Virus record (IMG/VR): IMGVR_UViG_3300020576_003089
Span: 1-64,000 of that record
Reading direction: 5' to 3' (one strand)
Origin: a virus
Lineage: Duplodnaviria; Caudoviricetes
DNA length: 64,000 nucleotides
In this document: piece after piece, positions 37,225-57,167 of the stretch
Layout: each line of letters opens with the position of its first letter
How positions within the stretch are numbered: position 1 is the first letter of the stretch
Made by a program: the position numbers and the translations under genes
The notes under the pieces: model-generated
The model's input: only the letters and a program-made list of their open reading frames with translations
Databases searched by the model: none
What the model was told of the DNA's origin: nothing

Positions 37225-39192
37225 TTAGTTTAATATATCTTTAAAATTAGATAATGAATATTTTATTTCGTTTATTTTATTTCTATTAATAAAACTGAAT
37301 TCTACTTTACTTGGGTTTAATATTCTACTATCTTCTTCAACATTAGAAGGATAACCTGATATAATATTGTCACCACCATTTATTTTAGTTTCTTCTCCAT
37401 TAATATATTTAAAAATATTTCCATTATCATCAGATAAAACCCATTTATAATACCCACCATCATCACCAGATAATGCTAAAGGAATTAATACAAAATCACC
37501 TTCAGGTAATGTGATTAAAAAGGGCATAGCATATTTAATAAAAATATAAGATGCATCATTTTTATCACCATATTTTTTAATAAATGATATTATTATTTTT
37601 CTTTCTTGAGATGGTAAATCTTTCCATAATTGATATGTAATAGGAACTGGAGTTATTTTTGCCTCAGGCATGTTAGTAACTTTCTCTAGTTCTTTTTCAG
37701 ATAAATTTTTAACTAAATTATAATCCCAGTTAGAATACAATTTATAAATTATGTTATATAATACTTTAGTTTTTTCATCTTCTATATACTTAGAAGCATA
37801 TTTTGGAATATATGAAAATGTTTTTACCATATTATTCACATATTTTGCGGCTGCATCTTCTCCAAAATATTTTAAAGCATATTCAAATGTGATATCTTTT
37901 TTCTCAAATAATTCAAAATATTTCAATTTATAAAATTCATCTAAAAATTGAATAAATGGTAAAGGTAATAAATCATTTACTTCCTTAATATCATTGTTTT
38001 TCTCATAAGAAACTAAATTTATTTTAAATTTACGATCAGCATATCTTTTAGCTAAACTTTTTATTACTTCTCCATCAGAATTTTTTAAATCATCCATACT
38101 AGGTTTAAATCCTGAATTAATAGCTAATTGTTTTTGTTCTTTAGTACAAATTTTAAACATACCATTATCAAAAAATCCTACATCACTAGCTCTTTTTTGA
38201 ATATACGCATTTTTTACTTCATTTGAAGCTTTAGCAAACGAATTTAAATTAAATCTACCATTAGAAGCAATATTTTCAATTTCTTCTGATTCAGGTGGTG
38301 CTATATATACAAATAAATTTTTTAAATCCTTAAGTTTATTCCATGCTTTTATACCACTTTCTTTACCATATTTAATCATATGTTTTCCAACTTCATCCCA
38401 TGAAATTCCTTGTTTATTTCCATCATTTTCATGACCTGTTCCATATTCATTAACAGCATCAGTAACACCAAATTTACCATTTTCAAACACGTGTATTACA
38501 AAGAAGTGATACCAATTTTTAAATTGAGGTTTTTTAGCTTCAGGATCATTCCATGTTTCAGCAGATTGTTCTGAATCAGCAACATAATAAAAAGTTCTGT
38601 ATAAAGCACCTTGACCTGATTCACCACCAAATCTATATCTAAAATATCTATTTATTCCTGGGTTTTTATCACCTATACAAAAATTATAATATTTATTTTC
38701 TCCATTTGTCCCTTTATATTTGTAAGCATAATTTAATCTAATACATGCTTCTTTATTAGAACCTTCATAAACATATAATCCATTTCCACTATAAATTTTA
38801 CTTACACCCGTAATATTTAATAAATGGGCATCCTGAACTGTATAAAAATCTTTAGATGATTTTTCTGCTTTTGTACCATATGAATCAAATAATATCTCCA
38901 TATCCTTCCAAGTATATTTCATTATATCTTGAGGATTTTCTTGTCTTAATGGTTTTTCACCCATTCTTAGTTTCTTATCAGGGTCAGGAGGCATAAATTT
39001 AGGTGATAATGTTAAAGTTTTTGCTTGAATTCTTTTAACAATATTACTTTTAATTCTATCAAAATTATCTATAGCAGCACGCATTACTTCTTCAGTAACG
39101 GTACCTTTAGTTTCTTTAGTCCATTCTGCTATTTTAAGTTTGATTACTTTATCTGAAAATTCTTTTAAATTCAGTAATTCTAATAATTTCAT
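37225..39192 (-). CDS. Large leader-tagged hypothetical protein (MKLLELLNLKE)
   Basis: 655 aa; first 24 nt identical to those of 39202-39600. Confidence 0.65.
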   Translation of the reverse strand: MKLLELLNLKEFSDKVIKLKIAEWTKETKGTVTEEVMRAAIDNFDRIKSNIVKRIQAKTLTLSPKFMPPDPDKKLRMGEKPLRQENPQDIMKYTWKDMEILFDSYGTKAEKSSKDFYTVQDAHLLNITGVSKIYSGNGLYVYEGSNKEACIRLNYAYKYKGTNGENKYYNFCIGDKNPGINRYFRYRFGGESGQGALYRTFYYVADSEQSAETWNDPEAKKPQFKNWYHFFVIHVFENGKFGVTDAVNEYGTGHENDGNKQGISWDEVGKHMIKYGKESGIKAWNKLKDLKNLFVYIAPPESEEIENIASNGRFNLNSFAKASNEVKNAYIQKRASDVGFFDNGMFKICTKEQKQLAINSGFKPSMDDLKNSDGEVIKSLAKRYADRKFKINLVSYEKNNDIKEVNDLLPLPFIQFLDEFYKLKYFELFEKKDITFEYALKYFGEDAAAKYVNNMVKTFSYIPKYASKYIEDEKTKVLYNIIYKLYSNWDYNLVKNLSEKELEKVTNMPEAKITPVPITYQLWKDLPSQERKIIISFIKKYGDKNDASYIFIKYAMPFLITLPEGDFVLIPLALSGDDGGYYKWVLSDDNGNIFKYINGEETKINGGDNIISGYPSNVEEDSRILNPSKVEFSFINRNKINEIKYSLSNFKDILN

Positions 39193-39606
39193 TTATTTTA
39201 TTTATTTATAATTGTTTTTAAAATATAAAGTAATATAAGGAGTATTTAATTTATATTTAAATCTAAATTTATCAGCTGCTTTTTTAAATATTTCTATTAA
39301 ATCATCCTCATAATCCTTATATATCCAATGAATAAAGTGAATCCCACTAATTTTTATTCTTCTCATAGAATTACCATTTTTTAATTTATATATATCATTA
39401 TAATAATCTATTTTACCATAAGTGTTTTGATGACCATTTAAACTTTGAATAAATTTATTTAATTGTTGAGGTGGAATAGGAAATTCTTTTAATATTTCAT
39501 TTGTACAATAAATTAAAAATAATTTTAATTTATCTTTATCATAAATATCAGAATTAGGATTAATTACTTCTAACTCATTCAGTAATTCTAATAATTTCAT
39601 TTATTT
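39169..39606. repeat. 30-bp exact direct repeat (39169-39198 and 39577-39606) covering two gene starts
   Basis: Minus strand AAATAA-ATGAAATTATTAGAATTACTGAAT at both positions. Confidence 0.85.
39202..39600 (-). CDS. Leader-tagged hypothetical protein (MKLLELLNELEVINP)
   Basis: Shared leader. Confidence 0.7.
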   Translation of the reverse strand: MKLLELLNELEVINPNSDIYDKDKLKLFLIYCTNEILKEFPIPPQQLNKFIQSLNGHQNTYGKIDYYNDIYKLKNGNSMRRIKISGIHFIHWIYKDYEDDLIEIFKKAADKFRFKYKLNTPYITLYFKNNYK

Positions 39607-40699
39607 ATTTTTTACAAACGTTAACAATTGTTATGGCTTTTTCATCAAATATTATTCTAACTGAACCATTTGAATGGGTATTACCATCTATTCCTGATCT
39701 TAATAAAAATAAAGAAGCATCTTTAGGTGCATTAGTTGAACCTTGATTTTTAAAATAATTTTCAATTTTATTGTATACATCAAAACCACTTAATGATGTT
39801 GTAAATTGAAAATTGTGATTTTCTTGTTTTGCTCTATTATTTATTTTATTAATCTGATTTTGAGGTACTCTATTATCTAAATCTAAATATTCATATTCTG
39901 ATGGTTTTTTACCTTTATGTAATAATACAGTATAAACATATTTCATTGGTTCTGTTTGAATCTCCATCCCTTTAATGATATCAATAAATCTTTTATATTC
40001 TTTTATTAAAGGTATATCATCTGGGTCTTCATCTTCTTCTAATATTTCTATCATATCCTCAGCATATTCAATAAATTCATCTACTGTTTGTAATTTAGAT
40101 GGTAATCTTTCAAATACTATACAATCATATTCAAATGCTAATTCATGTGGGTTTTTACCTTGAAAAAGTATCATTTTTTTACCACTATTACTCCCAACTC
40201 CAGCATAACCATTGGCCATATTAACGTCTTTAGCAAAATACAAACCCCATCCATACATTTGCATACCTGCACCTAAACCTATAGCTGCTGTTCTATAACA
40301 TTTAAAATAATTAGAACCACCACCATAAAATGTTTCTTCCTCAGTTATAGGTTGTTTATTGTTATTTAATTTTTCTTGAATTTTAAATTTATCTTTCAAA
40401 ATTTGTCTTAATTCTATTTGTTTATTCTTAGGTAATGATTTTATTTGTTGTAATATATGAGATATTGGTTTTTGGTCGTTATTAGAAGTTATTAACCATA
40501 TATGGTTAGATCCATGTTGTTTAATGTAAAATGGATAAGGTCTTTTTTTTAATCCTCTAACTGATAAACTACTCCATCTATTATCATCTTTTAACCTTTG
40601 AATTATTTCATTGAATTGGTTATCATTATCTACTCGTATAGGTATTTTTATAGGAGGTTTATTAATTTCTAATTCTAATAAGTTTGTTAAATTAATCAT
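39605..40699 (-). CDS. Leader-tagged protein with ADP-ribosyltransferase-like (ART-PolyVal-type) C-terminal domain
   Basis: MINLTNLLELEINKP leader; FYGGG...AIGLGAGMQMYGWGLYFA...SLFLLRSGIDG matches the polyvalent-protein ART signature as I recall it. Confidence 0.6.
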   Translation of the reverse strand: MINLTNLLELEINKPPIKIPIRVDNDNQFNEIIQRLKDDNRWSSLSVRGLKKRPYPFYIKQHGSNHIWLITSNNDQKPISHILQQIKSLPKNKQIELRQILKDKFKIQEKLNNNKQPITEEETFYGGGSNYFKCYRTAAIGLGAGMQMYGWGLYFAKDVNMANGYAGVGSNSGKKMILFQGKNPHELAFEYDCIVFERLPSKLQTVDEFIEYAEDMIEILEEDEDPDDIPLIKEYKRFIDIIKGMEIQTEPMKYVYTVLLHKGKKPSEYEYLDLDNRVPQNQINKINNRAKQENHNFQFTTSLSGFDVYNKIENYFKNQGSTNAPKDASLFLLRSGIDGNTHSNGSVRIIFDEKAITIVNVCKK

Positions 40700-40704
40700 G
40701 TTTC

Positions 40705-41757
40705 TTAATCCAGATCTTCTAAACCTGTGTCATCTTTTTTTAAATCATTATTAATATCATTCATAATATTCTGAGCCCAACGTTTTTGATTTGGTGTCAA
40801 TTTATTATTAATAGCATTTTCAATAAATATTAAAAATTCTTCATCTTGCATTTTATATATTTCAACAAATAATAATTCTCTTACTCTAGGATCGTCATAA
40901 TTTGATTCATTATATAAATTACTTACTGCATCATAAATAAATTTACCATATTGCATATCATGAGGTTCATTACTTAATTGATCTACGTTTCTTACTACAT
41001 TTTGATTTTGTTCTTTATCTGTTCCAAATCCTTGTAATGATAGTAATTCATATAAACCCTTAACAATTTCATGAACTAACATAGGAAAACATATAGCTCG
41101 TGCTACAATTGTTATTTTAATTGGTTCTGGTTCATCAAATCTATTTTTTTCTTCTTCATCTTCTCCTACTTTAACATAAACTTTACCACCTTCAGTTTTT
41201 CTACCTAGACTTAACATTGCTAGCATCATTGCTATTGCATTTTCATCATCAAATATTCCAAAAACTCTTTTAATTAAACCATTATAATCATTAACTAAAT
41301 TTTGATCTAATTTATCCAAATTATCTCTAAATAATAGAAATGCAAACGCTCCTCTAATTGAGGAACCTTGAGTAATAGCATTTATTACTCTACGTTTTTT
41401 ATCTGATGGTAATTCTTCCCATGATTCCTTAGGTGGAATTTTAGGTGGTTCAGGCATACCTGCATTAACATCAGTTACTATTTTAGCATCAATTTCAACT
41501 CCAGCATATTTTATAATTGGATATGCTTGATGAACTATATCTACAGCTGTTTGTTCTAAACTAGGAATATGTGACTTTTCAAAAACCATTACTTTTTGTA
41601 AAAGAGCAACCATATCACGTTGAGAACTATTAAGATTAATAGTTTTACCTAAATCAATTAAACTCTGTTTAGATTGACCCTTTAATAAATTTAATGTTTC
41701 TGGTTTAAATATTTTCTCATAATTAACTTCTTCTTTAATTATTTTTTTATTTCTCAT
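40705..41757 (-). CDS. Hypothetical protein (IIKEE N-terminus)
   Basis: 350-aa ORF. Confidence 0.6.
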   Translation of the reverse strand: MRNKKIIKEEVNYEKIFKPETLNLLKGQSKQSLIDLGKTINLNSSQRDMVALLQKVMVFEKSHIPSLEQTAVDIVHQAYPIIKYAGVEIDAKIVTDVNAGMPEPPKIPPKESWEELPSDKKRRVINAITQGSSIRGAFAFLLFRDNLDKLDQNLVNDYNGLIKRVFGIFDDENAIAMMLAMLSLGRKTEGGKVYVKVGEDEEEKNRFDEPEPIKITIVARAICFPMLVHEIVKGLYELLSLQGFGTDKEQNQNVVRNVDQLSNEPHDMQYGKFIYDAVSNLYNESNYDDPRVRELLFVEIYKMQDEEFLIFIENAINNKLTPNQKRWAQNIMNDINNDLKKDDTGLEDLD

Positions 41758-42176
41758 TATTTAGTTAGTGATTTAAAACGATTTTCAATTTTGTTAATTA
41801 TTTCTTTCTCTTTACCTGCCTTAGGTGCAGTTTCAGGAGCAGTTTTTGGTGGAGTTAATGGTCTACGTGGGCCTGGTTTAGTTGAGGGTTTACCAGGTGC
41901 TATTGATGGACTAGGACTAGTACCAGGTGATGGTGCTGGAGCTGGGTTATTTTCATTCATATGATCACTAGTGTATTTAGCTAAAATAGATGTGCATATA
42001 TTAGCAAATTCATCCATTTTGATACCATATTCACCTTTAAGTGATGTAAATAAACCTTTTAAACCATTTAAAACTTCTGCTTTTACTTCGTTTGGATCGG
42101 GAGCTGCTTCTAAGTTTTCTTTTATTACTTGTTTAACTATATTCTTAATTGAATTAGCTAATTTTTTTTTATCCAT
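41757..42176 (-). CDS. Pro-rich hypothetical protein (VIKENLE leader)
   Basis: PAPAPSPGTSPSP linker. Confidence 0.6.
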   Translation of the reverse strand: MDKKKLANSIKNIVKQVIKENLEAAPDPNEVKAEVLNGLKGLFTSLKGEYGIKMDEFANICTSILAKYTSDHMNENNPAPAPSPGTSPSPSIAPGKPSTKPGPRRPLTPPKTAPETAPKAGKEKEIINKIENRFKSLTK

Positions 42177-42218
42177 TAGTATAATTTATATATAAATATT
42201 AAACAAAATCAAAAGATG

Positions 42219-42341
42219 TTACTTATTGTATTTCCAAATATAACCATATGCTGTTTTTTGTAATCCAATCAAACATTTTCGTATAGTTTCACCACTAGTA
42301 TTAGCTAATTCTAAGAATCGAAGAAGCCACATAAATTCCAT
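42219..42341 (-). pseudogene. Relic of homing-endonuclease C-terminal NUMOD1-type DNA-binding domain
   Basis: Translated by hand: ...ELANTSGETIRKCLIGLQKTAYGYIWKYNK-stop, matching the ends of 43214-44035 and 56481-57167. Confidence 0.65.
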
Positions 42342-43233
42342 GTGCACCACTTACTGTTATACCTCTTGCTGATAGAGCATCTCCAACAAAATAAACATTT
42401 GGGTAATCAATTAATGATAAGTTATTATAATTTACTAATGGTTCAGGTGATAAATATTTTACTTCGGGTATATATATTCCCCAATCATCACCAAATTCAA
42501 ATATTTTATTCATTTGATCAATAAAATTAAGAATATAATCAGCATATTCTTTTCCTAATGATTGTTCTAAAGCTGCTTGTCCATTTCCAATTTCAAAACA
42601 AGATACTCTATTTCCTTCTGATGTTAATGATGGTTTACGAGATGGAGAAAAATAATATCCTACTCTTTTATCTTTTCTTAACCATGAATCGTCAGAGAAA
42701 TGTGATTGTATTGCTTGACATTTACTTACAGCTTCTCTACACCACTCAAATGGATTTTCAATACCTTTAATCTCCATTAATATACCAAAATTGGTCATAT
42801 CATTTCTAAATTCTTCACCTTTCTTAGCATGACCATTATATGAAATATCACCATATGTCTCTTCTACTGCAACATAAGCGGCGTTATTATTAGTGCAAAA
42901 TGTACGAATACTTACACTATTTTCTTCTTGTTTTTGTTTTTCAATTTGGTCTAAATCTAATCCTGTAGTGTTATTGAATTCTTTTTTATATTCTTCTCTA
43001 GTCTTACCTTCAGGGTATTCAAATTTTAAAGGGTAATGTTTTTGGTATAATTTAAAGTCATAACTAATATCAATTAATTTTTGAAAATATTTTTGTGGGC
43101 TTTCAAATCTCACCCCAATCTGGGCTGCGCGAGCTTCAGTAGGGAGATTTTTTTCTTTCATAATTTTTTGAGTTAAATCCATACCAGCTTTACCAGTACC
43201 ATAAATTAAAGTATCAAATTTTATTTTTCTCAT
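42301..43233 (-). CDS. FAD-dependent oxidoreductase (COG2509-like), C-terminal half
   Basis: KFDTLIYGTGKAG, QIGVRFE, RTFCTNNNAAYV, NGHA, TNFGILME, PEVKY, YFVGDA..RGITVSGAHG. Confidence 0.8.
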   Translation of the reverse strand: MRKIKFDTLIYGTGKAGMDLTQKIMKEKNLPTEARAAQIGVRFESPQKYFQKLIDISYDFKLYQKHYPLKFEYPEGKTREEYKKEFNNTTGLDLDQIEKQKQEENSVSIRTFCTNNNAAYVAVEETYGDISYNGHAKKGEEFRNDMTNFGILMEIKGIENPFEWCREAVSKCQAIQSHFSDDSWLRKDKRVGYYFSPSRKPSLTSEGNRVSCFEIGNGQAALEQSLGKEYADYILNFIDQMNKIFEFGDDWGIYIPEVKYLSPEPLVNYNNLSLIDYPNVYFVGDALSARGITVSGAHGIYVASSILRIS

Positions 43234-44035
43234 ATTGATTGTTTTTATATTTCCATTTATAACCTAAAGTTGATTGTCTTTTTCCTTGACAACAAAGACA
43301 TATACTTCCATTACTTTTTAATCCGGTTGTATTTTCAAATTCTTGAACAGAATCCCATTCTCTAATAAAATTATCTTCTAAATCATATTGTAATATAGGT
43401 TTTCTTCTTTTTTGTGAAACCATTTGATTTCTATAAGTCCAATCTATATTTCGTTTTTTAAAAGCCTCACTTTTCTTTTTTCTAGTTTCATCAGAATCTT
43501 TTATACCTAATCTAACTTTTTTACCTAACATAGACTTACTTTTTTTATCACATGTCTCTTTAGATTGTTTTTTACCTTTATTAAGTGATATATGACCTTT
43601 TAATCCTTCAGATATTTTTCTTTTAGATTCTTCAGAATGTTTCATTCCTGTGGTGCCAGATTTAACACCACATTCTGCTATATTAGCTAATATATAACCT
43701 TTATTTCGCAACTCTAATTCTGTTTCTCTTTCTTTTAATAATGCTTCTTCTTCACTTAATCCTTCAAATAATATCTCAGATTCAAATACACCATCATTTT
43801 TATTTACAATATTATGCCAGTATTGATTTCTACCGTATGTTCTAATTTCTCTTCCAGGTACTCCTTTTCCAACATAAAATGGTTCATTTATATCAGGTCG
43901 TATATGGATATAAACTATAAAATTATTGTTTTGTTTTCTTTTCGTGATATTTTTGTTTAAGTTTTTCATCGATTTTTTCTTTATTAGACCAGTAATATTT
44001 CTTACTATATTCTCGTTGTTTGAGAATACGTTCAT
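43214..44035 (-). mobile_element. Free-standing homing endonuclease (GIY-YIG variant + NUMOD3 + NUMOD1)
   Basis: FIVYIHIR...FYVGKG; KHSEESKRKISEGLKG; ILQYDLEDNFIREWDS...GYKWKY. Confidence 0.85.
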
Positions 44036-44107
44036 CTTCTGTTTGGTATTTTTTGATACGTCCCATCGATTATAAATATTACAGATCTAAGAAAAAATCT
44101 AAGAAAA

Positions 44108-44635
44108 TTAATTATGTTTTGAAATTTTAATTATTTCATTAGGTTTAATATCTAAAACATAACATCCATAAAAACTTAAATTTTTATTTTTTAAATCAAT
44201 TAATTCAGAAACATCCTGTAATGTTGGGTTAGATTTAAATTCAATCATTTCATCAAATTTATCAAAATCTTCTACACCAAATTCTTCAGGATCATAATCA
44301 TCTAAATCTATAAAAACTTCATTTAATGGTTTTTTGAATTTAATATTAATATAAGGTATATCTCCTCCTTCATCACTCATAGTATCTATCATTTCAAATC
44401 TTACTCTTTGGGTAGGAATAGCAGGTTTACTAGATGATTTAAAATTTTGCTGTGTTGCTTTTAAACCATTTTTAAATTCAGGTTTCCATACAGTATATCC
44501 TGTATCTCCTCCTCTTTCAAAATCATCTTGAGATTGAAGAAAAGAAGTGTTTAATTCAATAGTTAGAGTGTTATCTTTATTTAATGCCTTATTAATTTCC
44601 TCTTTAATGATTTGTTTTAATTCAGATTTTCTCAT
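44108..44635 (-). CDS. Hypothetical protein with MRKSELKQIIKEE leader
   Basis: ORF track translation. Confidence 0.65.
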   Translation of the reverse strand: MRKSELKQIIKEEINKALNKDNTLTIELNTSFLQSQDDFERGGDTGYTVWKPEFKNGLKATQQNFKSSSKPAIPTQRVRFEMIDTMSDEGGDIPYINIKFKKPLNEVFIDLDDYDPEEFGVEDFDKFDEMIEFKSNPTLQDVSELIDLKNKNLSFYGCYVLDIKPNEIIKISKHN

Positions 44636-44682
44636 ATTTTTATCTAATTTTTATATTTGTTTATTCTTTGTCTAAGAAAAAA

Positions 44683-45150
44683 TTAAACTATTTTTAAAAT
44701 ATATTTTGGTTCTAAATACCCTGGTTTATTAGAAATAATTCTTTCTTCTGCTAATTCAGATCCTCCTAAAGAATCAATTTTAACTCCTACTTGCTTAAAC
44801 CATTCATCACTTGGTTTATCTATATATGTAGAAGCTTGGATAGGAACAATTTTATATTTTTCTGATATTTTATTACCATCTAAAACAATTAGCGTTTTAT
44901 GTTTCCAATTTTGTTTTTTTCTTGTAGTAGATATAAAATATTCATTTGATATTTCTTCTTGAGGTTCACTAAATTTTAATCCTTTATCTAAAATATTTTT
45001 TATATTTTTAATATTAGTATAATGATATAATAATCCAATTTGTTTTCCTTCATTTAAGAAATCATCATCTTTATTAATTTTGTTTTCTGTAGTAATCCCT
45101 GCTAGTTTTTGTAGTCTTTTGATAATTCCTTCGTTTAGTTGTTTTTTCAT
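44683..45150 (-). CDS. RLQKLAGI-leader protein, ADP-ribosyltransferase-like fold candidate
   Basis: After LNE: LLYHYT...NILDKGL...ISTTR...EERI. Confidence 0.5.
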   Translation of the reverse strand: MKKQLNEGIIKRLQKLAGITTENKINKDDDFLNEGKQIGLLYHYTNIKNIKNILDKGLKFSEPQEEISNEYFISTTRKKQNWKHKTLIVLDGNKISEKYKIVPIQASTYIDKPSDEWFKQVGVKIDSLGGSELAEERIISNKPGYLEPKYILKIV

Positions 45151-45153
45151 ATT

Positions 45154-45618
45154 TTATTTTTGAATTTCAAATTTAATTTTTTTATTATTTAGTAATTTGA
45201 TGAGATTTTCATCTGGTTTATGGAGGATAGCTTTAGTAATAGTTGTTATAGGAATATTACCTTGTATAGAAATAGTTCCTCCTTCGTAACTTCTATTAGC
45301 TTGGGTCATTTTATTTTTTATCTTATTGCTATCTATCACAAATGTAACATCCAAATCTCCTAATCCATAAAAATTATTATTATCATGTGGAAAATCAGAA
45401 ACATATACAAATTTACCATAATTTGGATCTTCATACCAATCTTCAGGATTTTGGTTTGTTGATTTTAATATGTTTTCATAAGTTTTAATTTCACCACTTT
45501 TCAAAATGTTTAAAGCATTTTGTATATCTGTTGAATGATAAACTAAATTACCTTTTTGGTATTCTTTATCTTCTTTAAGTATTCCAGCTAATTTTTGCCA
45601 TCTTTTAAATTCTTTCAT
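45154..45618 (-). CDS. RWQKLAGI-leader protein, ADP-ribosyltransferase-like fold candidate
   Basis: After LKE: LVYHST...LNILKSGEI...FVYVS...VTFVID...GNIPITTI. Confidence 0.45.
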   Translation of the reverse strand: MKEFKRWQKLAGILKEDKEYQKGNLVYHSTDIQNALNILKSGEIKTYENILKSTNQNPEDWYEDPNYGKFVYVSDFPHDNNNFYGLGDLDVTFVIDSNKIKNKMTQANRSYEGGTISIQGNIPITTITKAILHKPDENLIKLLNNKKIKFEIQK

Positions 45619-45624
45619 ATTATA

Positions 45625-46143
45625 TTAATCTTTAATTATTATTTCATTGTTTTCAAAATCTACATCTTCTACCTCAGTTTCCCATTCAAATTTAACACCT
45701 TTATCTAATAAATACTCATACCAAGCAACTGCTATAAGAGAAAGATAATTGCTTCCTATATGCCAAACAGGAAATAATCTTAATCCAAAATACGGTTTAA
45801 TGAATTCTGGTTCATCTATTGGATTGGAGCAGAATATTTCTTCTGGTTTAGGATGGAAACGTTTGAAATTATTGATTACTTGATCCATTAACTCCATAGC
45901 TTTTTCTTCACCACAGTATTTACTTAATTGTCCTCCAATTGCAGTGTGATATGTTAATTTACCGTCGCTCCATCCACCTGCACCTAACATACCTTCCATT
46001 ACTTCTTCAGGTTTACGTTTGTAAGGATCATTTCCTTTATCTATAATGGTAATTAATTCACCTGGATATCCGTTATCTACTAATTTAGTAGCAGCATTTA
46101 TACCTGCTACTCCAGCTCCTACTATTACTATTTTTTTATTCAT
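45625..46143 (-). CDS. FAD-dependent oxidoreductase (COG2509-like), N-terminal half
   Basis: KIVIVGAGVAG Rossmann motif; GAGGWSDGKL; HIGSN; ends at EDVDFENNEIIIKD. Confidence 0.85.
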   Translation of the reverse strand: MNKKIVIVGAGVAGINAATKLVDNGYPGELITIIDKGNDPYKRKPEEVMEGMLGAGGWSDGKLTYHTAIGGQLSKYCGEEKAMELMDQVINNFKRFHPKPEEIFCSNPIDEPEFIKPYFGLRLFPVWHIGSNYLSLIAVAWYEYLLDKGVKFEWETEVEDVDFENNEIIIKD

Positions 46144-46370
46144 TTATTGTTTAAATTTAAGAGATTTTGTTCAAGTTCTTTTATTACTTCTTCATATTGT
46201 TTACTTGTAATATCCATTGCTTCATCTGTTTGTCCTTTATCAGCAAAATCTTTACATAATTTAGCTAAATCAATTGCTGCTATTAAATTATCTTTTTTAG
46301 ATAACATTCCTTTATATGGATTATGGTTTGATGATTTCAACATCAATTCTATTATTTCTTTATTTTTCAT
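46140..46370 (-). CDS. Hypothetical protein
   Basis: 76-aa coupled ORF. Confidence 0.55.
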   Translation of the reverse strand: MKNKEIIELMLKSSNHNPYKGMLSKKDNLIAAIDLAKLCKDFADKGQTDEAMDITSKQYEEVIKELEQNLLNLNNK

Positions 46371-46722
46371 TTAATCTTTCTTTAATACGTTGTTCAATTA
46401 TTTCTCTATCTTGTTGTGTTGGTTGATAATCATTCATTAAATTATTAGGTATATTATCCCAAGCATTACCATAATAAGATACATTGAAACCTCTATCAAG
46501 ACATTCTTTATAAAGTTCTTCATACCTGTTTTTTAAATATCCTAATTTGTTATAGAAAAATTTTACATGACCTTTTCCTAATGTGAATTGATTTGGGATA
46601 TCTACTATTTTAGCTCTACCACTTGAAATAGTATTAGGAATACGTTTAATTTCTCTATGTTCAGCCATTAAATGTCTGTTTGTTAATTCTCTAGGTTTAA
46701 TACCTACATTGATTCTTGTCAT
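46360..46722 (-). CDS. denV: Pyrimidine-dimer DNA glycosylase (T4 endonuclease V)
   Basis: MTRIN...LTNRHLMAEHREIKRI...FTLGKGHVKFFYNKLGYLKNRY. Confidence 0.95.
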   Translation of the reverse strand: MTRINVGIKPRELTNRHLMAEHREIKRIPNTISSGRAKIVDIPNQFTLGKGHVKFFYNKLGYLKNRYEELYKECLDRGFNVSYYGNAWDNIPNNLMNDYQPTQQDREIIEQRIKERLNEK

Positions 46723-46804
46723 TCTATAAAAGTAAGAAAAGAATTTTGACTTTTAACAACCTGTTTCTCGTACTATTATTTTTGACCTTTAATTTCTGTA
46801 ATTT

Positions 46805-47077
46805 TCATTCTGAACCTGGACCTTCCATCCATTCATTTTCATCTATTAATGATAAATTGTCAGATATAACTAAACCTCCACAATCATCTTCACTTCTCGT
46901 TATAATTATTTTAATATAATCTTCTCCATCATCATTTTCTTCATCTCGGATTTGCCAATCTAATTCATCACTATTAGGATTTAAAATTCCAAAACCTGTT
47001 TTATTCATAATGAGTTCAAGATTTAATCTAACCCAACTTTCACTAAATCCTGGTTTATTTACTTCTAATTCGTTTAA
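46805..47077 (-). CDS. Cargo module, probably the frameshifted tail of 47074-47952
   Basis: Frame upstream of Met47008 reads LNELEVNKPGFSESW..., preceded by TGA. Confidence 0.5.
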   Translation of the reverse strand, partial: LNELEVNKPGFSESWVRLNLELIMNKTGFGILNPNSDELDWQIRDEENDDGEDYIKIIITRSEDDCGGLVISDNLSLIDENEWMEGPGSE

Positions 47078-47952
47078 TCATTTAAATCAGGTTCTGTCCA
47101 TTTAATTATAATACTACCATATTCATCCGTTGAAACTTTAACTCTTTCTATAAGAGCTTCATGATCATTAAAAATTAATTTCTTTCCTTTTAAAAAGTTA
47201 AAGATTTTATTATATTCTTCTATTTGTTCATCATCATCCCATAAATGATCTTCATTAAACTCATATTCAATATTTTTATCTTCTCCCATCATGTTATCTT
47301 CATAATATACATCTATAACGTTTCGGATATATTTTTCAACTTCAGAACGAGTTAAAGGGTGATTTACTTCTAATTCATCTATTAGATCTTCGTCATCTTC
47401 CCATTTTTCATCATCATCATCATCGTCATCCCAATCATCTGATATTTCTAGCATTATTTCATATGCTCTTTTCAAAGCTAAATTTATTGAAGAATATTTT
47501 ATAGGTTCTTTTATTGCGTTTCCAAAAGCATAATATGCTTCTATTGTAAATCCATTTTCTTTTTTAATAATTTTAACATCATCTGTATGATTTTCATCAT
47601 GACCATCCATAGGTGCTGAAAACCAATAAACAATATCTTCTTTAATATCTTCAGGTTCTAATATAATTTCATCCCATCCTTCAGGAATTTTAACATTAGG
47701 ATTACTTATTTCTAATTCGTTTAGTTGAATACATGCTAATTGTTGCATTCTTTTGATTTCATCAATTCCTGCTTTTTCTAAACGTGAATAATATTTAGGA
47801 TCTTCTGCTAAATGATCTAATGCTATTTCTTTAGCAATTATTGAACTATTGGTATGTTCCATTTCATGTTTTATACCTTTTTTAAGTTCATTGTGGTCTA
47901 CATTTTTAGGATTTAATTTATCTCCTTTTCCACCTCGTAATTTATTTAACAT
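47074..47952 (-). CDS. Multi-module protein: small helical domain (DUF5661-like, from memory) + RMQQLACIQLNELEISNP + cargo + DELEVNHP + cargo
   Basis: HEMEHT...IAKEIALDHLAEDPKYYSRL, then the repeat junctions. Confidence 0.65.
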   Translation of the reverse strand: MLNKLRGGKGDKLNPKNVDHNELKKGIKHEMEHTNSSIIAKEIALDHLAEDPKYYSRLEKAGIDEIKRMQQLACIQLNELEISNPNVKIPEGWDEIILEPEDIKEDIVYWFSAPMDGHDENHTDDVKIIKKENGFTIEAYYAFGNAIKEPIKYSSINLALKRAYEIMLEISDDWDDDDDDDEKWEDDEDLIDELEVNHPLTRSEVEKYIRNVIDVYYEDNMMGEDKNIEYEFNEDHLWDDDEQIEEYNKIFNFLKGKKLIFNDHEALIERVKVSTDEYGSIIIKWTEPDLND

Positions 47953-48478
47953 TATATGTTCTGTTTCCTATTTTAAGTTTTTGAATAGTTGTCCAATTTA
48001 TCATTCTATATCCTTTAGTTTGAACATCATATACGGGAATTAATCCTTTTTCCTCTGGGTTGTATGGCAATTCACCGCCCTTAAGGTAGGCTTTCACACC
48101 TAAACGAGCATTCATCATACGTAATGTACCATCTTTTTTAATAAACCAAACAGTAAAGAATTTACCTTTAGTTGATTTAATCATATTTTTAGCATCAATA
48201 GGTGAAATATCTTTTACCTGTTCTGGTTCATCATCTTCAGGTGTATCTAAATCAAATTCAGGTTCTAATGGTGAATTAATATCAATAGTTCCGGCACCGG
48301 TTGGATCTATTGGTTTTAACTCAGGTTCTTCCTGATTATCAGCACTTGTATCCATATTAGTATCATCAAGACCTGGAATTGGTTTAGCTAAATCTAATTC
48401 GTCTTTGTCTTTATCATCTAAATTAGGTTCATCTAATTCATTAAGTATTTGACGTACTATTTTTAATAATTTAATCAT
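47942..48478 (-). CDS. Leader-tagged protein with C-terminal SH3-like beta-barrel
   Basis: MIKLLKIVRQILNELDEP; GKFFTVWFIKKDGTLRMMNARL...PVYDVQTKGYRMINW. Confidence 0.6.
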   Translation of the reverse strand: MIKLLKIVRQILNELDEPNLDDKDKDELDLAKPIPGLDDTNMDTSADNQEEPELKPIDPTGAGTIDINSPLEPEFDLDTPEDDEPEQVKDISPIDAKNMIKSTKGKFFTVWFIKKDGTLRMMNARLGVKAYLKGGELPYNPEEKGLIPVYDVQTKGYRMINWTTIQKLKIGNRTYNVK

Positions 48479-48755
48479 TACTGTATTTTAAATGTTCTTT
48501 AAAAGCTTTAATTAAATCCTGTTTTAATATAAACATATCATCTTCACTAGAACCATGATCATTCCATGATTCAACCATCTCTTTTATATCTTCTTCATTG
48601 TTTGGGAATAATGGTAATAAATGTTTTAATATTATATCTTCGCTTATCCATATAAATTCATATCCACCATTTTCATCTATTTCTTTAAATCCAATTTGAA
48701 TCAAATTTGGATCTTTAATTTCTAATTCATTTAATATGTCTAATAATTTGATCAT
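48471..48755 (-). CDS. Leader-tagged hypothetical protein (MIKLLDILNELEIKDP)
   Basis: Shared leader. Confidence 0.7.
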   Translation of the reverse strand: MIKLLDILNELEIKDPNLIQIGFKEIDENGGYEFIWISEDIILKHLLPLFPNNEEDIKEMVESWNDHGSSEDDMFILKQDLIKAFKEHLKYSND

Positions 48756-55534: not shown

Positions 55535-56488
55535 TTAAATCAAATTTAATTTTAATTGCATAAGTTTGGAAAAATCTAGTTGTTTTGTTTTTTCTAAGAT
55601 ACTTAAAAATCGACTATAACCAATTTCATTAATATCTTTACCATCAATTTCAACTAAATATACTTCTTTTCCCATATCCATCAATTTTTCAGCATATCTA
55701 ATTGAAGATTTAATTGCGTCTGGATCTAAACATATATATATTTTATCTACTGATGATTCAGCTAATTTTTCCATTAATGCATTATTAATTATTTTACCAA
55801 ACAATGGTATAACATTGCGTTTTATTGTTAGGGCATCGAATATACCTTCTACCAATATTATTGGTGCATCCCAATTAATGAATAGTTCTAAACCTATAAC
55901 TTTAGATGATATAGGTGGGTTTTTATATTTGGGAAATACATCTTCTTTAAATGATCTAGCTACAAAATAATTTAATTTACCTTTAGCATCATATGATGGT
56001 ATAATTATTCTACCTGAATATTTACCACTTTCACAAAATCCTATATTATATTTTAGAATATCATCTTTTGTTATATGACGTTTTTTAAGATATTGTATTG
56101 CTCTTCGAGCTTCTAGTTGAACTACTTTATTTAAATTACTTATATCAACGAGTGAAACATATTCTTCTGGTAGTTTAATTTGTTCTTCAGGAGCTTGTTG
56201 TTTTTTAGAACCTGGTCTTAAAATTAATTTTAATTCATTGTTTTTATCAGGTGCAACTTCTAACTTTTTGAATAATGATTTGACTGTTTTGCCTTTTGTT
56301 TCTAAACATGTCCAACAGTGCCATGGATTTTCTCCTTTTTCATTAGTTTCTAAATTTATTTCTAATTTTCTTTTATGATGATTACATATAGGGCAATGAT
56401 AAGAATAATTACCATTAGAAGTATATTTCCCTTCTTCACCTAAAACACGATTTAATAAATCTAATAATGTGTTATTTATATTAAGCAT
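55535..56488 (-). CDS. DNA primase (Zn-finger + TOPRIM)
   Basis: CPICNHH...WHCWTC; YLKKRHI; GRIIIP; LVEGIFD; CLDPD. Confidence 0.85.
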   Translation of the reverse strand: MLNINNTLLDLLNRVLGEEGKYTSNGNYSYHCPICNHHKRKLEINLETNEKGENPWHCWTCLETKGKTVKSLFKKLEVAPDKNNELKLILRPGSKKQQAPEEQIKLPEEYVSLVDISNLNKVVQLEARRAIQYLKKRHITKDDILKYNIGFCESGKYSGRIIIPSYDAKGKLNYFVARSFKEDVFPKYKNPPISSKVIGLELFINWDAPIILVEGIFDALTIKRNVIPLFGKIINNALMEKLAESSVDKIYICLDPDAIKSSIRYAEKLMDMGKEVYLVEIDGKDINEIGYSRFLSILEKTKQLDFSKLMQLKLNLI

Positions 56489-57167
56489 ATTTCCAAATAA
56501 ACCCTCCTGCTTGTTTTTGTTTACCCTTCAAAAATGAATTAATATCTCCTTTTACATATTTAGATGCTTCACTTATAGATTCCCATTCTTTGATAAAATT
56601 ACCTTCTAAATCATATTGATTTACTTTTTTTCTTAAACATTCTTTACCTCCACTAGTATCCCATGTTACTTTTCTACCTTTTAAACCTTTGGATATATTG
56701 TTTTTCCATTTATCATCTATCCATGTTCTATCCATGGTTTGATATGAATTTTTATGGTTTATTTTATGATTTTCATCAAATGGTTTAGGTTTACCTTTAT
56801 GTATTTTACTCATTTTTTCCTTAGTAAATTCATTATGTTTAAAACCTAATCTACTTTTACTAAGTTTTAACTTTGATTCTTCAGTAAAAAATGAAGGTCC
56901 ACCTCCACCATTATTTTTATTAATAACATCAAATCCCCATTGTTTAAATTGCTCAATCCAATATGTTTCTAGTGGTTTCCAATCTTTTTTATCTAATGAA
57001 TCAATTTCGTCTATATAATCATATGTTATTTCATTACCATATGTTGTTTTGTGATTAATAAATCTACAATTTTTAGTTTTACCTATGTAGACTTTATTTG
57101 GATCTCCGTAACAATTAGTTACTAAATATATTTTTGTAGAGTATAATAATATAGAATTTTCTTTCAT
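56481..57167 (-). mobile_element. Free-standing GIY-YIG homing endonuclease with NUMOD3/NUMOD1
   Basis: KIYLV...KVYIGKT; KHNEFTKEKMS; VNQYDLEGNFIKEWESISEA...AGGFIWKY. Confidence 0.85.

Follow-up and report, generated by a model that had tools for sequence, protein, structure and literature searches.

Friedrich is said to have described in 2007 how nrdA of Aeromonas phage Aeh1 is split by mobE, leaving 'genes in pieces'. Assembly of the Aeh1 enzyme requires the insertion-derived tails, and the enzyme is active in its split form (Crona 2011; PMC3045599). The pieces also cooperate in T4 gene 39/60, which is found with mobA, and in gene 43A/43B of Aeromonas phages 25/44RR, which is found with a seg-like gene (PMC2988022). 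For T4 endonucleases, double-strand-break repair with co-conversion of flanking markers has been described (PMC2988022), and a survey from 2023 records 'at least one instance' of an endonuclease-fragmented gene that works as two chains (PMC10448857). Here we describe a locus of this kind in a stretch of 64,000 nucleotides (nt), positions 1 to 64,000 of the IMG/VR virus record IMGVR_UViG_3300020576_003089 (the window). A gene for a flavin adenine dinucleotide (FAD)-dependent dehydrogenase is present there as two open reading frames (ORFs), the N-half and the C-half, which are separated by a gap with a free-standing homing endonuclease gene (HEG1) and three passenger genes.

As in Aeh1 nrdA/mobE, a free-standing endonuclease gene within a coding region apparently leaves two ORFs with no splicing. 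This analogy had been drawn in the original prediction, which was made from the letters of the window, and it fits (PMC2988022, PMC3045599). We consider it likely that a mobile cassette split one flavoenzyme gene in a variable hairpin loop, that the cassette spreads by homing and that the halves reassemble.

The window makes up most of the IMG/VR record, which has 75,232 bases and is ∼ 47% complete (CheckV estimate). Its G+C content is 21–34% and nearly all of its genes lie on the minus strand. Genes for a tail sheath, a major head protein, a portal and a large terminase point to an uncultured, contractile-tailed phage. Near-identical DNA was found in wastewater and river sequencing runs.

Results

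The two halves of the dehydrogenase gene

45625..46143, minus strand: N-half of the FAD-dependent dehydrogenase, 172 amino acids (aa), with the Rossmann β1-GxGxxG-helix and part of the cap domain
42301..43233, minus strand: C-half of the dehydrogenase, 310 aa, with the substrate domain, the C-terminal GD motif helix and a new Met-head, MRKIKFD..

The N-half contains the Rossmann motif GAGVAG, matches the N-terminus of Pyr_redox_2 (27.9 bits, cut-off 26.1) and covers positions 2–157 of the 422 in the profile phrog_12409 'dehydrogenase'; the C-half matches the same profile at positions 347–418. When aligned with intact metagenomic homologues of 451–502 aa, the halves abut, every conserved residue is present and the junction falls in a loop that varies in length among the intact homologues. 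The closest of these, P0003, has 84% identity to the N-half; its identity to the C-half is 89% in the distal part and only 55% in the first ∼ 65 residues. Identity to relatives is 70–88% for the N-half (N-parts of 36 relatives) and 67–77% for the C-half (36 relatives). Invariant residues are G9, G11 and G14 (GxGxxG) and D35 (acidic, after β2) in the N-half, and G284-D285 (the C-terminal GD motif) in the C-half. The N-half terminates in a short tail (..NEIIIKD) followed by TAA, while the Met-head of the C-half leads into the strand that pairs with β1 of the N-half.

We read the two ORFs as abutting parts of one COG2509-type FAD-dependent dehydrogenase. This agrees with the original prediction, which had proposed one FAD-dependent, COG2509-type enzyme gene in two ORFs, with the ATG of the C-half inside the last codons of the endonuclease gene. 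The halves belong to one family rather than to different ones; they are not degenerate, and every column found invariant among 37 N-parts and 37 C-parts is retained in the window sequence. The endonuclease ORF, with its stop at 43214, overlaps the C-half, with its ATG at 43233, by 20 nt.

The homologues are named 'uncharacterized FAD-dependent dehydrogenase' by JGI, which is the COG2509 name. In the model of intact P0003 (mean predicted local distance difference test score, pLDDT, 73) the split maps to residues ∼ 173–190, a low-confidence loop between two strands in which residues 175–185 are of low confidence. The top solved fold for this model in Foldseek is PDB 3NLC, a flavoprotein from structural genomics (E 2.2e-14, template modelling score 0.53), followed by general FAD monooxygenase/dehydrogenase folds. 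3NLC is a COG2509 member; in our data the assignment comes only through the JGI name of the homologues. A sequence search of the PDB with P0003 gave no match, and a profile search gave weak Rossmann matches only (3OC4, NADH peroxidase). Distant intact homologues (24–27% identity) include proteins of Campylobacter myophages annotated as NAD(FAD)-utilising dehydrogenases and proteins on human-gut phage contigs.

The gap and its endonuclease gene

The gap is 2391 base pairs (bp) long and contains four ORFs of 154, 155, 175 and 273 aa, all on the minus strand, the first three of which begin only 3–47 nt after the preceding gene. A 2.4-kb insert with one homing endonuclease and three cargo genes, as originally predicted, is thus what the sequence holds. 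The last of the four is the endonuclease gene.

43214..44035, minus strand: HEG1, free-standing homing endonuclease gene, 273 aa (251 aa from the Met at 43969), with a putative GIY..YVG-type N-domain and the DNA-binding modules NUMOD3 and NUMOD1

HEG1 matches phrog_314 'homing endonuclease' (E 8.6e-16) and NUMOD3 (28.5 bits, cut-off 20.4); its NUMOD1 match (19.1 bits) is under the cut-off of 22.8. A GIY-YIG-like motif can be recognized by eye (VYIH, 10 residues, FYVGKG), and an hhalign comparison of HEG1 with the profile of a second endonuclease family, HEG2, gave 88% probability over this motif (33 columns). A sequence search of the PDB with HEG1 found no match. Homologues 52–92% identical to HEG1 occupy the same position in at least eight related loci (L005, L011, L013, L044, L054, L075, L105 and L127). 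In related loci HEG1 always adjoins the C-half and has its stop inside the C-half start. HEG2 (∼ 220 aa) has a different GIY-YIG core and always adjoins the N-half, its ATG lying inside the N-half tail (L003, L033, L035, L041, L066 and L073). HEG2 and the endonuclease variant of L005 score 20.4–20.6 bits with the GIY-YIG model, under its cut-off of 22.6.

An intron, a split intein or a translational bypass could in principle restore a contiguous enzyme. T4 gene 60 uses translational bypass, and phage homing endonucleases are often found inside a group I intron or flanked by the parts of a split intein (PMC2677866). We regard restoration of this sort as very improbable here. The gap is filled by closely spaced ORFs, and relatives' gaps down to 369 bp still contain one. 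When both strands of 41500-47000 were searched, no Rfam family matched at E ≤ 1; no group I intron RNA core was found in this interval, and an intron-encoded endonuclease was rejected. The split-intein 'fractured gene' was rejected as well: intein segments were not found, and since the N-half stops and the C-half starts no more than a few residues from the homologous loop, intein pieces of ∼ 100 aa and ∼ 35 aa would not fit. No contig joins the halves in two RNA libraries, although contigs cannot prove absence; the contig joints that these libraries do contain are few and have sides of < 30 nt. The sequencing-run data are assembled contigs throughout and bear neither on transcription nor on its absence.

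Split and intact alleles in related phages

A scan of IMG/VR with the C-half confirmed 182 relatives, of which the best 80 loci were kept (first sample). The corresponding scan with the N-half found at least 589 relatives, and again the best 80 loci were kept (second sample); the two samples share a few contigs. Many related phage contigs carry the gene as a single ORF of 445–500 aa. The first sample comprises 61 intact and 19 split alleles, the second 63 intact, 13 split and four undetermined, so that split alleles account for 17–24%. The same split was found in at least 29 independent IMG/VR contigs and is therefore not due to chance. All splits are at the same loop, and the split C-halves all share a similar new head, M-[RK]-[KN]-KIK-[FY]-D. 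The gaps of relatives measure 369–1236 bp, that of the window being the largest seen. They hold either of the two endonuclease families or remnants of them, together with a changing set of small leader-tagged ORFs, which includes a GNAT acetyltransferase in L073, L102 and L116. In one contig of sequencing run X5, 45615-45731 of the window is replaced by 727 other letters, the size of HEG2.

Several split alleles (L007-L010 and L021) carry no endonuclease gene. They keep 25–60 nt of the HEG1 3′ end before the C-half ATG, and the remnant in L021 has a TGG-to-TAG change. L088 and L089 have endonuclease fragments only, and in L041 HEG2 is in pieces. It follows that the endonuclease arrived first and decays, while the split and the passengers persist.

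Mobility and co-conversion

In maximum-likelihood trees of both halves the split state needs at least three changes, which well-supported branches make unavoidable. Split alleles do not form a single clade, and several of them pair with intact ones (L010 with L051, L035 with L077). Along both halves, split L010 and intact L051 are 95–100% identical in DNA except at the gap flanks. Over the final ∼ 100 nt of the N-half and the initial ∼ 170 nt of the C-half, identity to L051 falls to 47–62%, and identity to split alleles L008 and L011 rises to 85–98%. L021 is the same kind of mosaic, 97–100% identical to intact L065/L068 except beside the gap. The replaced flanks of the mosaics extend about 60–170 nt per gap side and match other split alleles. 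The window has a similar tract.

43115..43233, minus strand: approximate co-conversion tract, the first 90–120 nt of the C-half, of split-allele type and not of intact type

Over columns 1–90 the window is 80–95% identical to split L003 and 62–67% to the best intact allele. The mosaic flanks of L010 and L021 are the signature of homing by double-strand-break repair in which neighbouring sequence is co-converted. The converted tract is mainly in the C-half for HEG1 cassettes and mainly in the N-half for HEG2 cassettes. The DNA of the LIFAVGKSGIDF motif ranks with the best conserved of the intact alleles, at a majority-base frequency of 94%. Many substitutions, some of which change residues, are found in this stretch in HEG1-type alleles; HEG2-type alleles keep the stretch. 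Because it is so conserved in intact alleles and substituted in HEG1 alleles, we infer that the LIFAVGKSGIDF stretch is the putative target of HEG1 and that the substitutions provide immunity.

The abundance of both forms in metagenomes would also fit a two-gene ancestor, with the single ORFs as later fusions. Of all the explanations considered we give this one the least credence: the distant homologues in Campylobacter phages (24–25% identity), on human-gut phage contigs and in bacteria (3NLC) are single-chain, and split alleles are nested in intact clades with near-identical distal DNA. The split is better described as a mobile and recurrent polymorphism in which a second endonuclease family uses the same loop.

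Are the halves maintained and able to assemble?

In the first sample, 13 split loci contain the two halves together, and in each of them, including L041 with its fragmented HEG2, neither reading frame is interrupted; across both samples none of the split alleles with both halves on the contig has a disrupted half. Pairwise ratios of non-synonymous to synonymous divergence (dN/dS) among split alleles are 0.05–0.30, like those of split-intact pairs.

A model of the complex of the two halves, with FAD riding along, yielded an interaction prediction score from aligned errors (ipSAE) of 0.91, 0.89 and 0.91 in three runs, compared with 0.32 for the best control. The ipSAE mark is reached by 58 of 80 solved complexes and by 2 of 110 mismatched pairs. 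Partner pLDDT is ≥ 87 and ≥ 95% of contacts are common between runs. The halves form one FAD domain in the model, in which N-half β1 (residues 3–9) pairs with C-half residues 9–11, the C-terminal helix 283–304 packs on the GxGxxG helix, and the cassette-derived tail (158–172) and head (1–16) are in contact. We take the model as a predicted compatibility of the halves, not as binding. The two genes probably still build one enzyme.

The halves could instead be dead remnants, the insertion having killed a dispensable auxiliary gene whose decay is still to come. The gene is accessory, and the invasions of L010 and L021 are very recent (95–100% identical to intact alleles), so their intact ORFs say little. 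Since the cassette has repeatedly invaded intact alleles, part of the low dN/dS dates from before the splits. We nevertheless judge this explanation improbable. Frameshifts and stops are found in none of the split alleles with both halves on the contig, split alleles that differ from one another by dS ∼ 1 or more still have dN/dS of 0.05–0.23, and every split allele has an in-frame ATG head right at the loop. The halves also outlast the endonuclease, which is fragmented in L041 (HEG2) and L088/L089 and reduced to 25–60 nt of HEG1 in L007-L010 and L021; a pseudogene is therefore unlikely overall.

Besides the age of the dN/dS signal, a number of points weigh against a mobile cassette whose two gene halves reassemble. 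The halves of any single-chain fold are expected to pass the complex score, the score may reflect memory of solved flavoproteins, and our use of our own alignments and of a riding FAD departs from its calibration. The Pfam GIY-YIG model gives no match to HEG1. With the record ∼ 47% complete, an intact second copy of the gene may lie elsewhere. Cargo turnover may proceed by ordinary recombination and not by homing, a point taken up below. Finally, assembly, FAD binding, activity and cleavage by HEG1 are predictions from sequences and models.

Passenger genes and other features of the gap

45154..45618, minus strand: passenger gene 1, 154 aa, leader tag and putative ADP-ribosyltransferase-fold body; ATG 6 nt past the N-half stop
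44683..45150, minus strand: passenger gene 2, 155 aa, leader as in gene 1 and HYD1-type ADP-ribosyltransferase-like body; 3 nt after gene 1
44108..44635, minus strand: passenger gene 3, 175 aa, SELKQIIKEEI-type leader; bracketed by copies of TTTTCTTAGA
44086..44107, minus strand: pair of TTTTCTTAGA copies directly 5′ of the endonuclease unit; third copy at 44671-44680
43923..44066, minus strand: 47-aa ORF in a different frame from the endonuclease ORF, whose 5′ end it overlaps; also in L005, L011 and L013

The best Foldseek matches of the AlphaFold model of passenger gene 1 (pLDDT 85) are Tpt1/KptA and DarT (E 1.7e-5 to 1e-3), which are NAD+-using folds. Its 86 relatives have a highly conserved body, with residues in the YHST, YVSDF and YEGGT stretches invariant or nearly so, and swapped N-terminal leaders. 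Passenger gene 2 has weak Pfam matches (Tox-ART-HYD1, 16.3 bits with a cut-off of 25; PARP; DarT). An ORF 39% identical to it (L004:577-1053) precedes a C-half and passes the Tox-ART-HYD1 cut-off with 29.4 bits. Passenger genes 1 and 2 align over the leader and the first motif. For passenger gene 3, Pfam, PHROGs, NCBIfam and the protein Atlas gave no match; a copy 84% identical is found in L033, outside the gap, and the same leader type starts gap ORFs of L007-L011 and L021. In sequencing runs X5-X7, 44108-44611 (passenger gene 3) is uncovered by contigs. Over 25 nt, the 3′ end of passenger gene 3 resembles the tail of the N-half (80%), a similarity too short to interpret.

The leaders are modular, and all those among the relatives of passenger gene 1 end in [IL]xE. 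The suggestion, made at the outset, that the site collects tagged cargo is supported by the changing leader-tagged ORFs in the gaps of relatives, among them copies of the 154-aa passenger gene 1, 88–90% identical, in L033 and L066.

This turnover of the split and its passengers could be due mainly to ordinary homologous recombination via leader tags and spacers, with the endonucleases as mere passengers. The tagged ORFs of L007-L010 and L021 are found with no endonuclease gene, and since several split alleles thus have passengers and no endonuclease, cargo turnover may run on ordinary recombination. In L008 a direct repeat of 62 nt (81% identity) covers the ATG and leader of neighbouring gap ORFs; the relatives of passenger gene 1 keep the body and swap the leader, and many window genes have the same leader types. 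Against this stand the retention of the HEG1 3′ end by all endonuclease-free alleles of the window's type, the position of the replaced flanks on the side of the resident endonuclease (C-half for HEG1, N-half for HEG2), which fits cleavage-site immunity, and the fact that HEG1 alleles are substituted in the very stretch where the DNA of intact alleles is most conserved (94% majority-base). As an account of the whole we find recombination unlikely. Leader-tag recombination is a real competitor for the cargo part, where it may complement homing.

The decamer TTTTCTTAGA occurs in three copies in the 64-kb window, all within the gap. In L011 (7130-7151) and L013 it marks where the endonuclease unit has its 5′ edge, and in L021 (1147) it marks the edge of the deletion; it may be a cassette boundary or a regulatory word. 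The 47-aa ORF is nearly unchanged in L005, L011 and L013, even though the GIY-YIG core of L005 is of another kind; candidate roles are those of a conserved leader, a regulatory ORF and a frameshift partner. A promoter and terminator scan of 41500-47000 gave counts no higher than in shuffled sequence, and the T4 late-promoter word TATAAATA was not found in the gap of the window.

Further observations in the window and in related phages

Many window ORFs (37225-40699, 47074-48755 and others) begin with one of a few similar N-terminal tags; the tag types LLELLNELE..NP and QKLAGI also start gap ORFs in related loci. The translation of 56484-56855 is 33% identical to the C-terminal DNA-binding part of HEG1 and could represent a further endonuclease, whole or as a remnant. 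A gene for a T4 endonuclease V-type pyrimidine-dimer glycosylase (46360-46722) lies two genes upstream of the N-half, and the neighbourhood with this gene is kept in L023, L067 and L069.

Within the C-half, 42549-42732 is a variable insertion of ∼ 40 residues that is missing from many homologues; contigs from three wastewater runs have 176 other letters for these 182 nt. C-terminal dehydrogenase pieces of 67–82 aa and 151 aa (P0217-P0230, P0209, P0213) start at an internal Met, and several of them sit on contigs of 7–32 kb. These pieces suggest that in other phages the C-half contains additional sites of recurrent splitting.

Discussion

We propose that a single-copy COG2509-type dehydrogenase gene was cut by a mobile cassette in a variable hairpin loop. 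The cassette would give the N-half a short new tail and a stop codon, and the C-half a new ATG and head. Three leader-tagged passengers, two of them with a predicted ADP-ribosyltransferase fold, would lie between the N-half and HEG1, which would form the 3′ end. As the comparison of alleles shows, intact alleles of related phages are entered by gene conversion, with ∼ 60–170 nt of flanking coding sequence dragged along; HEG2, from the second family, uses the same loop from the N-half side; and the endonucleases decay or are deleted, whereas the split and the passenger genes stay. HEG1 would cut the conserved LIFAVGKSGIDF codons of intact alleles, its own allele being shielded by the substituted version LIYGTGKAGMD, and the passenger genes may profit from the homing platform. 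The two polypeptides are predicted to reassemble non-covalently into one FAD-binding enzyme, in which C-half residues 9–11 would add a strand beside N-half β1, the GD helix would pack on the GxGxxG helix, and the new tail and head would pair as the original hairpin did.

A bolder version, which we offer tentatively as a possibility, sees the loop as a landing pad for an 'intragenic HEG islet'. Two unrelated endonuclease families would home to its opposite edges and shuttle interchangeable leader-tagged effectors (ADP-ribosyltransferase-fold, GNAT and others), maybe capsid-loaded, between phages; the tail and head from the cassette would let the enzyme go on working in two chains, so that the insertion would be costless.

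Known genes that are fragmented by a free-standing endonuclease and work as two chains number only a handful, and those cases are fixed in single phage lineages. The locus described here shows all stages at once in environmental phages: intact alleles, fresh invasions with co-conversion tracts, competing endonucleases, decaying endonucleases and endonuclease-free split alleles with passengers. Besides this population with all stages, new features are the gene that is split, a multi-gene islet inside a coding region, a single loop with two families of endonuclease and accessory, leader-tagged cargo with a predicted ADP-ribosyltransferase fold. The locus makes testable how far a coding region tolerates fragmentation, whether endonuclease target immunity can be encoded in a conserved protein motif, and whether homing sites are vehicles for accessory, possibly host-modifying, genes. 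For annotation, gene callers list hundreds of 'C-half only' flavoproteins that are really halves.

Comparison with known systems

The dehydrogenase and VP0956 of Vibrio parahaemolyticus (PDB 3NLC) agree in the Rossmann motif and in the logic of a C-terminal GD motif, whereas sequence identity is only 14%. In having two gene pieces with an endonuclease gene between them, and in its occurrence in metagenomes, the locus resembles the fractured genes of Dassa 2009 (PMC2677866); unlike these it has no intein segments, so the product stays two chains.

As in T4 39/60 and in 43A/43B, a gene of a T4-type phage is fragmented at or beside a free-standing endonuclease. Those are essential replication genes whose fragmentation is lineage-fixed, whereas here an auxiliary gene is affected and split and intact forms coexist. 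HEG-islands (Barth, Dunham, Seed 2023; PMC10448857) are similar in that endonuclease genes bracket cargo, endonuclease types are interchangeable at a site, and the unit has high DNA identity between otherwise diverged phages. However, HEG-islands exceed 10 kb, contain essential core genes and lie between genes; the cassettes described here measure 0.4–2.4 kb, contain accessory leader-tagged genes and split a coding region.

The closest parallel is with Aeh1 nrdA/mobE. In both cases there is an insertion-derived C-terminal tail and N-terminal head, and reassembly of the halves is expected; the split Aeh1 enzyme has been shown to be active, whereas for the present enzyme function is predicted from its sequence and from structure models. 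The enzyme is a ribonucleotide reductase and the endonuclease an HNH protein in Aeh1, compared with an FAD dehydrogenase and probable GIY-YIG/NUMOD proteins here. Unlike Aeh1, the present site has up to three extra passenger genes and two endonuclease families, and its polymorphism is frequent (17–24% of sampled alleles), with recent invasions still visible.

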